Shown: positions 35,117 to 64,000 of the stretch, piece after piece
Layout of the letters: every line of letters begins with the position of its first letter
Position numbering within the stretch: position 1 is the stretch's first letter
Sequence record: PQ330092
Source: Escherichia phage JP4
Length of the DNA: 64,000 nucleotides
Reading direction: 5' to 3' (one strand)
Made by a program: the position numbers and the translations under genes
The notes under the pieces: generated by a model
What the model was told of the DNA's origin: nothing
Seen by the model: the letters and a program-made list of their open reading frames with translations, nothing else
Database searches by the model: none

Positions 35117-35314
35117 ATGCGTATTTTAACTAAAGAACAGCACCACGAAAGACTTATCAATAACATGGCTATGATAATGTATAAGTCCCATGACCGTGGT
35201 ATTGCCTATAAGCGTGAATTAATTATGGCACTATTCATTGGAACTAACTTTCAGGAAAGGTATGTCAACGATTGGATTTGGTATTTAATTGAAGATATAA
35301 CGAGTAAACTATGA
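35117..35314 (+). CDS. Array paralog, short class (65 aa), FIGTNFQERYV motif
   Basis: First gene of array; promoter 35059-35086 and SD TGGAG upstream. Confidence 0.7.
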   Translation: MRILTKEQHHERLINNMAMIMYKSHDRGIAYKRELIMALFIGTNFQERYVNDWIWYLIEDITSKL

Positions 35315-35511
35315 AAATGCGTATTTTAAATAAAGAAGAATATCAATCACTGTTACGTAAAAACTTCACAAAGATTTATAATACAGACACACACGTAGAA
35401 CGAATGGAGTTATACCTTTTGATTACTTTGGGAACTAACTATCAGGAAAGATGGGTGATTCAATATATGGATACATTGAAAAATAAAATATTGTCCACGA
35501 GGAAACAATGA
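35311..35511 (+). CDS. Array paralog, short class (66 aa), LGTNYQE motif
   Basis: ATGA overlap with upstream gene; motif TLGTNYQERWV. Confidence 0.7.
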   Translation: MKMRILNKEEYQSLLRKNFTKIYNTDTHVERMELYLLITLGTNYQERWVIQYMDTLKNKILSTRKQ

Positions 35512-35717
35512 AAACTATAACACGAACCCAATCATACGGTCTTATCTTGAAATACATGGACTTAATGGTGGATATCAGCAAAGACCTTCCTAAAACTGAA
35601 ATTCAAGTTGCAAGAGCAGAGATCCGTATGTTGGCTGTACTGAACACAAACCATCAGGAAGAGTATGTTGAAGAATGGATTCGATTTTTAATAGAAGATA
35701 TAAAGAGTAAATTATGA
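35508..35717 (+). CDS. Array paralog, short class (69 aa)
   Basis: ATGA overlap; motif LNTNHQEEYV. Confidence 0.7.
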   Translation: MKTITRTQSYGLILKYMDLMVDISKDLPKTEIQVARAEIRMLAVLNTNHQEEYVEEWIRFLIEDIKSKL

Positions 35718-35929
35718 TTATTATAGAAAACTCATATCAATATACTGAACGCATCGCTGCCAGACAACTTGAAATCCTCATAATATACGAAGAGACTTCT
35801 GATTTAAACTTAGCCGAGGTATTGGAAAATGATATACTATTGGGTGCATTCTTAGGAACAGACTATCAGAAGTATTATGAGGAAAAGTATTTGTCATCTC
35901 TTGAGAAATATATCAGGAGCAAATTATGA
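35714..35929 (+). CDS. Array paralog, short class (71 aa)
   Basis: ATGA overlap; motif LGTDYQKYY. Confidence 0.7.
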   Translation: MIIIENSYQYTERIAARQLEILIIYEETSDLNLAEVLENDILLGAFLGTDYQKYYEEKYLSSLEKYIRSKL

Positions 35930-36138
35930 TTTTTTTAACACCAGAAGAATATAAGAAACGTTTCAATTCCGCACAGGGTGAAATCTTACTTATATACCTT
36001 TCAAATGCAGACCTTAACTTATCAAGGGTATTAGAAAAAGATTTACTTATGGGTGCATTCCTTGATACAGACTTTCAGGTGTATTATGTAGGGGAATACT
36101 TAATTGCACTTCAGAATTATATCAGGAGTAAACTATGA
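35926..36138 (+). CDS. Array paralog, short class (70 aa)
   Basis: ATGA overlap; close paralog of 35714..35929. Confidence 0.7.
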   Translation: MIFLTPEEYKKRFNSAQGEILLIYLSNADLNLSRVLEKDLLMGAFLDTDFQVYYVGEYLIALQNYIRSKL

Positions 36139-36362
36139 AACATTTAAGTAATATTGAGAAGATGAGAATTATCATTGATGCATTAAACAAATACGATACC
36201 CTTTTACAAATAAAAGGTTTAACTCGATTGGAACACAAGATAAACACCACCGATGTACGCATGTTGGCTGTACTGGGGACAAACTATCAGGAAGGTTATG
36301 TTCATGAGCACATAGTTGCACTCACTAATTACATAATGGACAAATGTAATGAACATCATTAA
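36135..36362 (+). CDS. Array paralog, short class (75 aa)
   Basis: ATGA overlap; motif LGTNYQEGYVHEHIVALTNYI. Confidence 0.7.
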   Translation: MKHLSNIEKMRIIIDALNKYDTLLQIKGLTRLEHKINTTDVRMLAVLGTNYQEGYVHEHIVALTNYIMDKCNEHH

Positions 36363-36573
36363 TAACTTTGAATACGAGGCCCGTGCTAAGAGTGCCAGAA
36401 AAAAAGAGAACACCATTTACTTCACTATGATGTACTTACAATGGACTGAAATTGAAGAAAAGGTTGCTGAAGTATGGATGTTGGAATTCATGGGGACGCA
36501 GTATCAGAATAGGTTTGCGGGTGAGTATATCAATGTTCTTATGAAACAAATAGAAAGAAAGGAAAAGAACTAA
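36349..36573 (+). CDS. Array paralog, short class (74 aa)
   Basis: Overlapping start; motif MGTQYQNRF. Confidence 0.65.
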   Translation: MNIINNFEYEARAKSARKKENTIYFTMMYLQWTEIEEKVAEVWMLEFMGTQYQNRFAGEYINVLMKQIERKEKN

Positions 36574-36731
36574 TGGTTTTCATTAACATATCTGACCAAC
36601 TCGATACTAAACTAGAAGTCGAGCAGAGTGAGGGATGGATGCTGTACTTTCTTGGAACTTCTCATCAAAATTTTTATATCCATGAACACATAGTTGCACT
36701 CACAAATCTAATAAGGGATAAATGTAAATGA
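36573..36731 (+). CDS. Array paralog, N-terminally short member (52 aa), not in ORF track
   Basis: TAATG overlap; C-terminus FYIHEHIVALTNLIRDKC nearly repeats that of 36135..36362. Confidence 0.5.
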   Translation: MVFINISDQLDTKLEVEQSEGWMLYFLGTSHQNFYIHEHIVALTNLIRDKCK

Positions 36732-61917: not shown

Positions 61918-62428
61918 AGATGATATTCTAATTAGACTAATCAACAGTCTGTTAAATTTCGTGAATAGTGCCAGTGATACACACAATATAGGTGACATTG
62001 AATTCAAATCATTTGGAATGTACGGTGAGGAAAAAACATATTATGCATCAATGAAATTCCAAGATTATTATGAAATGTTAGTTTCATTATCATACGAAGA
62101 TGTGGACCCAAGATGGAGTTCCAGTATTTCACTATCGAGAATGGTAATTCGTAGTAAACATCGTTACATTTCGTCAAAGAATACTCCCAACTTGTTTGAT
62201 ATTGTTTTAAATGAAAATACCAATCCTATATCTAAACATGATATCGTACCTTTAACTGATGAAGTACTTTTTCAATTGAGTACCATTTGTGATGAAGATG
62301 TGATATCATGTATGAAAATTTATGAGAAGGTTGGGAGTGATATTCCCATGAACTATTACCTAACGATAGATGGAACATACCTCAGAGATGAAGCTCTAGC
62401 GTACATTGACAGTGTTTTACCAAAATAA
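61910..62428 (+). CDS. Array paralog, long class (172 aa; start refined), EVLFQLSTICDED
   Basis: Terminator 62429-62457 downstream. Confidence 0.55.
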   Translation: MDKDDILIRLINSLLNFVNSASDTHNIGDIEFKSFGMYGEEKTYYASMKFQDYYEMLVSLSYEDVDPRWSSSISLSRMVIRSKHRYISSKNTPNLFDIVLNENTNPISKHDIVPLTDEVLFQLSTICDEDVISCMKIYEKVGSDIPMNYYLTIDGTYLRDEALAYIDSVLPK

Positions 62429-62457
62429 AGACCCGTATTGGGTCTTTTTGTGTTTAC
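62429..62457 (+). terminator. Rho-independent terminator inside array
   Basis: AGACCCGTATTGGGTCT + TTTTGTGTTT. Confidence 0.7.
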
Positions 62458-62460
62458 GTC

Positions 62461-62489
62461 TTTACAGTAGCATTCAGATGTGTTATAAT
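62461..62489 (+). promoter_or_regulatory. Internal array promoter TTTACA-17-TATAAT
   Basis: Read directly; follows terminator 62429-62457. Confidence 0.55.
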
Positions 62490-62516
62490 CGCTTTTAATA
62501 GAGTACAGGAGAAGAT

Positions 62517-63083
62517 ATGAGTACTGAATTAATTAAAGAAGTTACCTTACTTCTGAAGCATTGTTTTAAGTTCATTCCTGATACTGGTTCACGCCAGTAC
62601 ATTAAAGTTAATGAGAAATATAACATCAATATCCTTGTATCTGAAACTGCGAGCAGTTATGCTAACATTGAGTTGGATTCTGAAGAAAAATATACAGTAT
62701 TACAAATCATAGCAGATGTACAACGTAAACAAGATTATCGTTCTTCATTTTACAACGATTATCTGTGTGTTTGCTCAAACTTCAGTGAGAATAAAATTGT
62801 GTATAAGAATTTATACACACATGAAGTGATTGATACATATAATTATAAAATTTCATCTGATGAATACAATGTGCTAATGTTCAACGCAAACCTTTTGTAT
62901 GATGCCAGTACTGTACGCTGTTTAGAGTTAGCATATAAAATTCCAAAGATCATGGAAAGAAAAGATTTGATTCACTTTAAAACTATTTTAAAATACAGTA
63001 CAAAAGAATTAGAGGATTTAGTACAGGCTCTTAAGAATTTCATTAATGAACATGTACCTGTTAAATTCGAGGATGCACAATGA
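62517..63083 (+). CDS. Array-associated protein (188 aa), degenerate motif
   Basis: Promoter 62461-62489; SD CAGGAGAAG. Confidence 0.6.
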   Translation: MSTELIKEVTLLLKHCFKFIPDTGSRQYIKVNEKYNINILVSETASSYANIELDSEEKYTVLQIIADVQRKQDYRSSFYNDYLCVCSNFSENKIVYKNLYTHEVIDTYNYKISSDEYNVLMFNANLLYDASTVRCLELAYKIPKIMERKDLIHFKTILKYSTKELEDLVQALKNFINEHVPVKFEDAQ

Positions 63084-63664
63084 ACCATATCAGAACTAAA
63101 ATTTTGAGACTCATGCATGACATTGCAGAACTTTCAGAGATTCATGACATTACAGAAATTGTTGAATTTGATGATTATCGACTGAAAATTGAAAACAAAT
63201 CCAAACATCGTTTTGGATCAGTTCAGTTGGATGTATATAAAACTTATGAATTTTCTAAAAAAATTAAAAGTTCATGGGATACGATTACTATGTACATTCG
63301 CACATCCAGAAATCGTGAACGTATTGGTTCTATTTCTTCTAATATGGTATTTGCGAATGCATTACATGAAAAAATGAATAAAATTGTAGAATCTGATTTC
63401 AGTGAAGATGATGGTTTTATTGGGTTGGATGTTCCACCAGAATTAGACCAAAGTGAAGATATTCGAGATGCATTCATTTTCCAGAAATCATTGTTGGACA
63501 ATTACAAAGAATTCGAGTACTTAATGCTTTGTTACGATACTGCAAAAGTTCTTGATTGTGGTGAACTAGTTATGTACAATGATTTTATCAATTACAAGAC
63601 TGATGTTCTGAATACACTACTTCAAAATATAGAATCGGTTAAGGAAAAATATGAACGCTTATAG
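63080..63664 (+). CDS. Array paralog, long class (194 aa), AFIFQKSLLDNY
   Basis: ATGA overlap. Confidence 0.6.
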   Translation: MNHIRTKILRLMHDIAELSEIHDITEIVEFDDYRLKIENKSKHRFGSVQLDVYKTYEFSKKIKSSWDTITMYIRTSRNRERIGSISSNMVFANALHEKMNKIVESDFSEDDGFIGLDVPPELDQSEDIRDAFIFQKSLLDNYKEFEYLMLCYDTAKVLDCGELVMYNDFINYKTDVLNTLLQNIESVKEKYERL

Positions 63665-64000
63665 TTATATGACAGAACGCCATCAGTTATTATATGATAT
63701 CAGTACAAAAATGTTATCAATTGTTAGTAGTGCAAAAGAAATTGAAAAACAATACCTCATCCGTGATGTAGCAATTTCATCTAAATGTTGGTCCAATGAA
63801 TATTACGATCACGGTATTCTTACTATTTCTGGGGCTAGAAATATTTGTATTGTAAAAAATAAAAATAAAAGTAATGAAGAGTGTGAGATTATAACCGATA
63901 TACAAATTAAGGATGATGGAAGTTTTTCACACCACCCATTCCATATTAGTACTATTGGTGTTTTATATAATATTAAAGTACTATTCGGTGATGAAGAGTA
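63651..64000 (+). CDS. Hypothetical protein, 3'-partial (runs off window end)
   Basis: SD AAGGAAAAAT then ATG 63651; open to end of window. Confidence 0.5.
   Translation, partial: MNAYSYMTERHQLLYDISTKMLSIVSSAKEIEKQYLIRDVAISSKCWSNEYYDHGILTISGARNICIVKNKNKSNEECEIITDIQIKDDGSFSHHPFHISTIGVLYNIKVLFGDEE

Follow-up and report, generated by a model that had tools for sequence, protein, structure and literature searches.

The stretch analyzed here, 64,000 nucleotides of Escherichia phage JP4 (PQ330092; as a whole, the window), carries from position 35117 a roughly 29-kb array of small genes made up mostly of two diversified protein families. By its sequence, the window belongs to an Asteriusvirus (PBECO4/121Q-like) jumbo coliphage with a genome of about 350 kb; positions 35000–47000 are 93–98% identical to Asteriusvirus BF17, PBECO4, G17, Sharanji and phAPEC6. 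Comparisons among the genes and with related phages point clearly to an array that arose when two unrelated genes, each confined to this lineage, were duplicated in tandem long ago, and to a hypervariable, probably early accessory region of Asteriusvirus lying directly inside the left direct terminal repeat (DTR). As for what the products do, the reading we prefer, though with somewhat less than even confidence, is that they are early-expressed diversified binding proteins acting on strain-variable host factors.

The array is an unbroken chain of 83 co-directional open reading frames (ORFs) on the plus strand from 35117 to 63664, and no opposite-strand gene is annotated in GenBank in the equivalent region of G17, phAPEC6, JNE01 or A4. 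It is 1.6% intergenic (98% coding), compared to 31% for the DTR. The junctions include 24 ATGA overlaps and about 40 other short overlaps; six gaps exceed 25 bp, and Shine–Dalgarno (SD) cores stand ahead of about 50% of the starts versus 8.5% of random positions. An earlier reading of this DNA, made from the sequence alone (the sequence-only reading), had described an uninterrupted same-strand array of this length with translationally coupled genes, and had called the number of paralogs unusual for a phage. These points hold up. In phAPEC6, the equivalent block, gp411c–gp489c, accounts for 79 of 551 genes (PMC7247149). The same reading had put about 75 paralogs into one family, which needs revision, since we find 65–71 paralogs in two families plus 12 ORFs of neither. 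The array runs a few kb past the end of the window, as indicated by three weaker long-family matches downstream in G17.

The short family consists of 29 genes in a row (35117–41474) and four more at 42775, 42936, 55821 and 56017, or 33 in all, exactly as first counted, and the alignment confirms the C-terminal LGTNYQE-x-YV...I..L motif by which they had been recognized. Leave-one-out Hidden Markov Models (HMMs) recover 32 of the 33 members with E values of 1e-7 to 1e-22, with 37199–37450 being marginal (leave-one-out hhalign P 0.008). The AlphaFold2 (AF2) model of 37646–37861 has a pLDDT of 97.5 and four helices. We take the family to be 32–33 copies of a predicted four-helix protein of about 72 aa. 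It is mildly basic (median pI 8.1), and three members match phrog_4148, annotated as unknown function, with E values of 5e-21 to 1e-26. The L-G-T-N-x-Q turn suggested a helix-turn-helix (HTH) DNA-binding protein, but neither an HTH fold nor a Pfam HTH match was found, and that candidate was dropped. The alignments of both families lack a conserved Cys/His motif. The top match of the profile search was a 154-aa metagenome protein in ENA that is an in-frame, two-domain fusion of orthologs of the adjacent genes 39493–39735 and 39732–39962 (equivalent to window 39493–39962).

The long family has 37–38 candidates with a (D)..(S/T)EE(L/Y)FQ-x-S-(L/T)-V motif, close to the 40 or so first estimated. 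Leave-one-out HMMs recover 33 of 37; the members at 55307, 56749 and 63080 are doubtful, and those at 49169, 47829 and 49452 are weak. Five such members were judged by leave-one-out, in which they score weakly or fail, and the hhalign probabilities of 96–98% obtained against alignments already containing them were discarded as circular. This leaves the family at 33–38 copies of a 100–205-aa protein, modeled as alpha/beta. It is acidic, with a median pI of 4.7 and a median net charge of −9.5. The AF2 model of 53327–53812 (pLDDT 90.5, pTM 0.84) proceeds from an N-terminal helix through a seven-stranded region to helices with the EEYYFQN motif at residues 109–115. Foldseek against BFVD, a collection of viral predicted structures, returned only 121Q paralogs and uncharacterized proteins of RaK2, GAP32, Yersinia fHe-Yen9-03/04 and Serratia BF. 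No structural relative was found among solved structures, and the modeled fold is apparently new. Long proteins match phrog_9317, 12674, 13866, 15629, 19795, 22855 and 28549, with E values down to 1e-125 and with cross-matches; all of these PHROGs are annotated as unknown function. The EE(L/Y)FQ-x-S motif was also considered as a TEV/3C-type protease site, and this was set aside because P1' varies and because residues 109–115, which hold the motif, are modeled as a short helix in a confidently folded domain. Two GenBank labels on long-family members, 'DNA ligase' on A4_348 (20064–20600 of the A4 stretch compared) and 'amidohydrolase 3' on phAPEC6 gp447c (15809–16186 of the phAPEC6 stretch), are probably spurious.

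The two families share an aromatic-Q-E-x-x-V pattern, but they do not form one superfamily: hhalign gives a probability of 0.2% over 2 aligned columns, and the AF2 folds differ, being all-alpha for the short proteins and alpha/beta for the long ones. The 12 other ORFs, tried as divergent members of either family, reached hhalign probabilities of at most 3%. Chance occurrence of a short motif does not account for membership, because the two family HMMs match nothing further in the six frames of the window at E<10. The array is laid out as follows.

35117–41474, plus strand: 29 consecutive short-family genes, 52–96 aa, predicted four-helix, LGTNYQE-x-YV, phrog_4148.
41464–42178, plus strand: long-family genes 41464–41808 and 41774–42178, both of the small subtype, which lacks the N-terminal helix (leave-one-out E 6e-9 and 7e-11).
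42238–42483, plus strand: 81-aa ORF of neither family, putative membrane protein with one strongly hydrophobic segment.
42474–42791, plus strand: long-family gene, small subtype (leave-one-out E 1.4e-9).
42775–43223, plus strand: outlying short-family genes 42775–42987 and 42936–43223 (leave-one-out E 2e-8 and 9e-10).
43195–43933, plus strand: three ORFs of neither family, 128, 53 and 67 aa (hhalign probability <1% to both; no Pfam match).
43930–46714, plus strand: long-family genes 43930, 44556, 45052, 45335 and 46208, with unrelated ORF 45888–46229.
46767–50066, plus strand: long-family genes 46767, 47306, 47829, 48657, 49169 and 49452 (47829, 49169 and 49452 weak or borderline), with unrelated ORF 48454–48648.
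50089–50648, plus strand: three small ORFs of neither family by hhalign and Pfam, 55, 67 and 69 aa.
50738–51935, plus strand: long-family genes, three side by side, all in the 'PDYTVLD-x-ELFQESLVFDKKY' subfamily, with DNA repeat D8 (77% identity).
51945–54245, plus strand: five adjacent long-family paralogs of the 'GPWDSEEYYFQ' subfamily, phrog_9317, with DNA repeats D3, D4 and D9; the AF2 model of the long family is of 53327–53815.
54242–55843, plus strand: long-family genes 54242 and 54861, doubtful member 55307–55843 and unrelated ORF 54556–54864.
55821–56208, plus strand: outlying short-family genes 55821–56039 and 56017–56208 (leave-one-out E 1.6e-7 and 1.1e-13).
56198–58588, plus strand: long-family genes 56198, 57357, 57709 and 58004, with doubtful member 56749–57351.
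58648–62428, plus strand: long-family genes 58648, 59121, 59581, 59927, 60328, 61354 and 61862, with unrelated 180-aa ORF 60815–61357.
62517–63664, plus strand: unrelated 188-aa ORF 62517–63083 and doubtful long-family member 63080–63664; the array goes on past the window.

The position of the array relative to the genome end follows from a repeat in the first part of the window. Positions 1–14905 are an exact copy of 20115–35019 (14,905 bp, with a period of 20,114 bp). Position 14906 aligns to position 1 of fEgEco12, ELP-22 and CRJP21, and the junction 14905|14906 is spanned by none of the phage records compared. We read that junction as the right physical end of a linear genome with a 20,114-bp DTR, joined to its left end. 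The window then wraps the record of a linear genome, so the 14,905-bp copy is not a true tandem duplication.

14906–35019, plus strand: complete direct terminal repeat, 20,114 bp; positions 1–14905 are the tail of the other copy.

Terminal repeats of this kind are documented in the genus: for fEgEco12, the termini and a 20,993-bp repeat were confirmed by restriction digests (PMC13070987), and for Sharanji, a 20,668-bp repeat was assigned by PhageTerm (PMC11895373). The first array gene, at 35117, is thus 98 bp into the unique region past the left DTR, and the array adjoins a genome terminus, the physical end mapping to 14906. The DTR itself (14906–35019) holds about 52 small ORFs, with each group of ORFs having its own promoter and terminator.

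That the duplications occurred in tandem is indicated by the placement of the closest relatives. The nearest paralog lies within two family ranks for 20 of 33 short genes (3.9 expected) and for 11 of 37 long genes (4.0 expected). The duplications are not recent. Short-family paralogs share a mean identity of 24% and long-family paralogs one of 17%, and the closest pairs have a pS (proportion of synonymous differences) of about 0.5 and a dN/dS (ratio of nonsynonymous to synonymous rates) of 0.34–0.45; for example, the 43930/44556 pair has a pS of 0.57, and the 51945/53327 pair has a pS of 0.51 and a dN/dS of 0.34. A recent 'accordion' amplification was rejected with the closest pairs at that distance. 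Against the conspecific phage G17, pooled dN/dS comes to 0.34 in the short block and 0.25 in the long block, compared to 0.16 in the DTR genes. Selection is thus maintaining the genes, which are not a decaying set of duplicates, and by this comparison the paralogs appear to be individually retained under purifying selection. Identity to G17 is a mosaic, with genes at 100% beside genes at 70–75% and single genes present or absent. Gene 44556–45062 is absent from G17 (25% coverage only), and the outlying short genes 42775–42987 and 42936–43223 are highly divergent alleles with nucleotide identities of 68% and 85.5%.

These numbers bear on the ratchet model of Hua et al. (2017), under which the array would be weakly selected duplicates filling an enlarged capsid, kept mainly so that the genome matches the length packaged, and having little individual function. 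Those authors propose tandem duplication as a means of genome expansion and cite the array of coliphage 121Q (PMC5646251). The model is also in keeping with a dN/dS in the array about twice that of the flanking genes, with single-gene gains and losses between strains, and with the lack of a detectable function in family searches. We regard it as improbable. A dN/dS of 0.25–0.34 and ORFs that are intact in every genome examined, though the paralog pairs are synonymously saturated, do not look like filler, nor do motifs conserved since before the split from RaK2-like phages, confident predicted folds, and the preservation of SD sites and translational coupling. In addition, the ends of a DTR genome are fixed, which means that it is not packaged by simple headful filling.

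Between species, the array behaves very differently from the genes beside it. The median protein identity to JNE01 is 96.7% in the DTR flank and 34.3% in the array; to A4, the corresponding values are 94.6% and 53.8%, and the difference has a p of about 1e-9 to 1e-12 in these two comparisons. Identity drops precisely where the array begins, at the gene starting at 35117. Within the species, there is no such break, with medians to G17 of 96.7% for the DTR flank and 95.9% for the array. Beyond the far end of the array, G17–JNE01 identity recovers patchily, at 28–90%. By these comparisons, the array is the fastest-diverging part of the region across species. Copy numbers of short and long genes also differ, being 33/38 in the window, 33/39 in G17, 32/40 in phAPEC6, 25/38 in A4 and 21/32 in JNE01. 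The A4 array also holds an inserted 471-aa gene labeled 'methyl-accepting chemotaxis protein' (A4_379, 34131–35543 of the A4 stretch), and an extra 272-aa gene (A4_316) lies between its DTR and its array.

An alternative in which this divergence is harder to accommodate is that the array encodes host-takeover or developmental regulators directed at conserved core machinery, such as RNA polymerase, the nucleoid, proteases (for example, the phage ClpP encoded downstream) or replication, and that they time the infection in this way, with the diversity representing a division of labor and not an arms race. Conserved targets should keep their effectors conserved, but the array is 34–54% identical between species versus 95–97% for the DTR genes, and its copy number varies. 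Agreeing with this alternative are the early-type sigma-70 promoters described below, the position beside the DTR, the parallels with PA5oct (early genes in the DTR) and CBB (short ORFs proposed to be early), purifying selection on every paralog, the mildly basic short family, and a set of downstream enzymes comprising Dam methylase, RNA ligase, polynucleotide kinase (PNK), DNA ligase and ClpP. On balance, we think it rather unlikely.

The families have a restricted distribution. Among 1.84 billion representative proteins, the long-family profile finds 117 clusters, all of 65–250 aa; the more remote clusters are from metagenome contigs or A4-type Asteriusvirus. One uncultured relative, on a 101-kb contig with no nucleotide similarity to the window, has 32 long-family genes in 20 kb on one strand. 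For the distribution of the long family at individual loci, a 12-member subfamily alignment was used; the 20 kb of the RaK2 locus examined has one member at the sequence level (E 5e-10). The short-family consensus matches 12–26 places per Asteriusvirus record versus 2–5 in Klebsiella RaK2-like phages, and in a word-indexed profile search, every short-family protein recovered was on a contig of about 350 kb assigned to E. coli or Asteriusvirus. Since both families are present at a few copies in RaK2-like phages, they predate that split, and the massive expansion took place in the Asteriusvirus lineage. Many homologs of array proteins carry the source name 'Escherichia coli' in the databases and lie on contigs of roughly 350 kb, which means that Asteriusvirus genomes are present in assemblies of bacterial isolates. 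Lytic phage genomes in bacterial assemblies have likewise been reported recently (PMC12768965).

Expression signals in the array are few and placed in its rare gaps. Strong plus-strand sigma-70 promoters with an extended −10 TG number 14 in 14906–64000, and 14 of 14 are intergenic: ten in the DTR (10 of 10) and four in the array, where they occupy the four largest informative gaps. The signals in and just ahead of the array are these.

35059–35086, plus strand: weak sigma-70-like site TTGATT-16-TATTAT (9/12 match, no TG), in the 249-bp gap before the first array gene.
42180–42208, plus strand: strong sigma-70 promoter TTGACA-17-TATAGT, extended −10 TG.
46702–46723, plus strand: terminator-like hairpin with a T-run after it; a terminator is annotated at the corresponding position of G17.
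46740–46768, plus strand: strong sigma-70 promoter TTGACA-17-TATCAT, TG.
50661–50689, plus strand: sigma-70-like site TTGACA-17-AAAAAT, no TG, in an 89-bp gap.
58585–58614, plus strand: perfect-consensus sigma-70 promoter TTGACA-18-TATAAT, TG (12/12 match).
62427–62447, plus strand: terminator-like hairpin with a 9-bp stem; G17 has an annotated terminator at the equivalent place.
62461–62489, plus strand: strong sigma-70 promoter TTTACA-17-TATAAT, TG.

Each of the hairpins at 46702 and 62427 stands ahead of a promoter (46740 and 62461, respectively). An organization into operons by internal promoters and terminators, as previously suggested, is in keeping with these four promoters and two terminators. 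The site at 35059 is a possible promoter of the first operon, which may alternatively be read through from the DTR. The T4-type late motif TATAAATA does not occur on the plus strand of 14906–64000, where about 7 would be expected from base composition. Host sigma-70-type promoters together with an absent late motif make up the pattern of an early module. In PA5oct, a relative in the RaK2 clade, the DTR genes are of the early class, and the infection depends on host RNA polymerase and is rifampicin-sensitive (PMC7318152). Early expression was also proposed for part of the CBB genome where short ORFs have RpoD-like promoters (PMC5259590). From these signals and analogies, we infer early expression of the array.

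The array products are not virion components as far as the phAPEC6 data go, since none of gp411c–gp489c is among the 62 proteins of its virion proteome by mass spectrometry (PMC7247149). That result makes it very improbable that these are packaged internal or ejected proteins, like those of the T4-type internal protein (IP) locus. The conserved N-terminus of the short family (M-K-x-L-T-x-x-E-Y) and the inner body of phAPEC6 might be taken as pointing to packaging, but the AF2 model places that N-terminus in helix 1 of the compact fold and not in a cleavable leader.

Searches for known families were uniformly negative. The 80 array proteins scanned had only chance-level matches in Pfam, and the NCBIfam, PADLOC and PDB sequence searches likewise gave only chance-level matches. 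The sequence-only reading had likened the array to polymorphic immunity-protein arrays and to the multigene families of large eukaryotic viruses. The second likeness holds in layout. The first holds in layout too, tandem, same-strand, small diversified paralogs being what both have, but it fails in homology and in any match to a toxin domain. If the likeness were functional, the products would be immunity-like antidotes to polymorphic toxins or abortive-infection effectors, and the acidity of the long family would also suit that role. However, no match to SUKH, SMI1, Imm or other immunity Pfam families was found in the 80 proteins, there was no structural match, and Pfam showed no toxin domain among these 80 proteins, with the DTR ORFs upstream not having been scanned. 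We assign only a small probability to this explanation.

One ORF stands apart from the rest. The 42238–42483 product has a maximum Kyte–Doolittle 19-residue window of 2.77 and is the sole membrane-like ORF of the 83. It sits directly behind the strong promoter at 42180, has a dN of 0 versus G17, and, unlike the genes around it, is matched at 86% identity in A4 and 61% in JNE01, compared to array medians of 54% and 34%. We interpret it as a putative conserved single-copy membrane protein embedded in the array. It would be of interest if the array served superinfection exclusion or inter-phage competition, with different paralogs blocking different competing phages or mobile elements arriving in an already infected cell. 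Early signals, diversification and absence from the virion would be expected in that case as well. But many known exclusion proteins act at the envelope, and only 1 of 83 ORFs is membrane-like; nor is there homology to Imm, Sp, Cor or similar families. Such a role seems improbable to us.

Returning to diversified binding proteins aimed at strain-variable host factors, we can picture the system as follows. Five or six long polycistronic operons would be read by host sigma-70 RNA polymerase straight upon entry of the DNA, with neighboring genes translationally coupled, and the products would remain cytoplasmic and not be packaged into virions. Each paralog would be a small binding protein consisting of a conserved scaffold, or handle, and a fast-evolving surface. 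The pattern of variation in the short family suggests such a division. Among 17 orthologs of 37646–37864, most variable sites are found in helix 2, in the loop or where helix 3 starts; helix 1, the GTNYQ turn and helix 4 are invariant across the 17 variants, and variability among orthologs is anticorrelated with conservation among paralogs (rho −0.41, p 4e-4). Helix 1, the GTNYQ turn and helix 4 would then be the handle, and helix 2, the loop and the start of helix 3 the variable surface. In the long family, the handle may be the EE(Y/L)FQxS helix and the helix after it, and the variable surface may be the indel-rich beta-sheet region. The repertoire would neutralize or redirect host factors that differ between strains, with components of anti-phage defense being the prime candidates, and array content would help set host range. 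The paralogs would be kept individually, and across species whole sets would be replaced or diverge.

A host-interaction or anti-defense arsenal had been offered as a hypothesis by the sequence-only reading, and diversified, selected, non-virion, fast-diverging paralogs with early promoters do fit such a set. Several points nevertheless weigh against our preferred reading. No homology to a known anti-defense, immunity or host-takeover protein was found for the array proteins, and the literature searched contained no Asteriusvirus transcriptome. No strong promoter belongs to the first operon itself. Recent, nearly identical copies are also missing, which means that the array is not behaving as an 'accordion' at present. 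dN/dS is below 1 in every gene-level test, and since only a few 20-codon windows have pN (the nonsynonymous counterpart of pS) about equal to pS, positive selection is not demonstrated; the fast divergence could come from weak constraint instead. Much of this evidence would also suit host takeover or superinfection exclusion.

We also consider a bolder proposal, which we hold to be doubtful. The array would be the phage counterpart of the terminal families of African swine fever virus (ASFV) and poxviruses: about 70 early binding proteins on two phage-specific scaffolds (one with a fold absent from solved structures), each disabling a different host immune or strain-specific factor and together setting which E. 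coli and Salmonella strains can be infected. The GTNYQE turn and the EE(Y/L)FQxS helix would dock all of them on one shared partner (for example, a protease or RNA polymerase of the phage or the host), making the two families adaptor libraries instead of simple inhibitors.

Some features of the surroundings deserve mention. The terminal repeat contains repeat families of 119–139 nt, D1 with 7 copies and D2 with 4 (both DTR copies counted). GC content over 34000–64000 goes from 0.38–0.40 in the terminal repeat to 0.29–0.33 in the array. GC skew reaches 0.15–0.23 in the long-family block, possibly as a result of acidic, purine-rich coding. Neither tRNAs nor Rfam families were detected in the window. 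Downstream of the array in G17 (280000–320200), and in the same orientation, are genes for a Dam-type methyltransferase, RNA ligase A, polynucleotide kinase and DNA ligase, followed by a ClpP-like protease subunit, dCMP deaminase, Sir2-like and NUDIX proteins, and PhoH. In T4, an RNA ligase and PNK pair is a tRNA-repair countermeasure, and by analogy the G17 pair could be one also.

Comparison with known systems places the array in a familiar category. In ASFV (multigene families MGF360/505/110) and poxviruses (terminal host-range families, 'genomic accordions'), a host-range role has been shown. The array resembles these in lying near a genome end, in consisting of tandem diversified paralogs, in copy-number differences, and in diverging faster than the core. 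It differs in having no homology to them and no near-identical recent copies, and the host-range role established there is only an analogy here. Bacterial polymorphic toxin systems have orphan immunity-gene arrays, likewise tandem, same-strand and composed of small diversified paralogs, but the array is in a lytic phage and has no sequence or fold relation to the immunity families. The SPO1 terminal-repeat module and the T5 pre-early genes are early host-takeover modules at phage genome ends. With these and with PA5oct, the array shares small co-directional ORFs at or next to long terminal repeats and strong host-type promoters. Theirs are mostly unrelated single-copy genes inside the repeat, whereas the array is just outside it, is 80–85% paralogs, and has an early timing suggested by its promoters. 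T4-type IP proteins carry a capsid-targeting leader and are packaged, and the T4 hyperplastic regions are mostly unrelated ORFs. Such regions are also hotspots of small accessory genes differing between close relatives, but the array is made of paralog families and is absent from the virion proteome. A T4-type capsid protein is listed for Asteriusvirus (Table 1, PMC5646251). In Bacillus phage G, there is a lineage-specific expansion of about 35 zinc-ribbon genes, role unknown (Iyer et al. 2021, PMC7824862). It, too, is an expansion of one small protein to tens of copies in a jumbo phage, but the zinc ribbon is proposed to bind DNA, while the array comprises two families without a Cys/His motif that together are about twice as numerous.

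That such an array exists was already known. Hua et al. (mBio 2017, PMC5646251) devoted one sentence to a tandem array in coliphage 121Q, attributing it to tandem duplication. That array is the same locus in a sister Asteriusvirus, with proteins 97.5% identical to those of the window. Their account did not separate the two families or treat structure, selection, boundaries, promoters or function, and the genes are not 'very similar', as stated there, given mean identities of 24% and 17% in the short and long families. No description going beyond theirs was found in the literature on Asteriusvirus, PBECO4, 121Q, phAPEC6, Sharanji, fEgEco12 or UE-S1, or in a jumbo-phage comparative review. The present analysis adds that the array is composed of two families, one with an apparently new fold, and that it begins at the DTR boundary; it also adds how the promoters are arranged, what selection acts on the genes, how far the arrays of different species have diverged, and that the families have low-copy ancestors. 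In kind, this is a multigene family expansion specific to one lineage of large viruses, and for a phage its size is unusual.

This block takes up roughly one in seven genes of a coliphage of 350 kb, and none has a known function or belongs to a known family, nor does the long class have a known fold. The system is tractable, as these phages grow on laboratory E. coli; the recorded host of Sharanji is K-12 MG1655, and slurp01 was isolated on MG1655. If the genes are only weakly selected duplicates, the array would be the clearest example for the capsid–genome ratchet model. If they are anti-defense or host-range factors, the array would be a source of dozens of natural variants built on a pair of compact scaffolds, among them possible new inhibitors of bacterial immunity, and its content may serve as a predictor of host range for therapeutic Asteriusvirus isolates.

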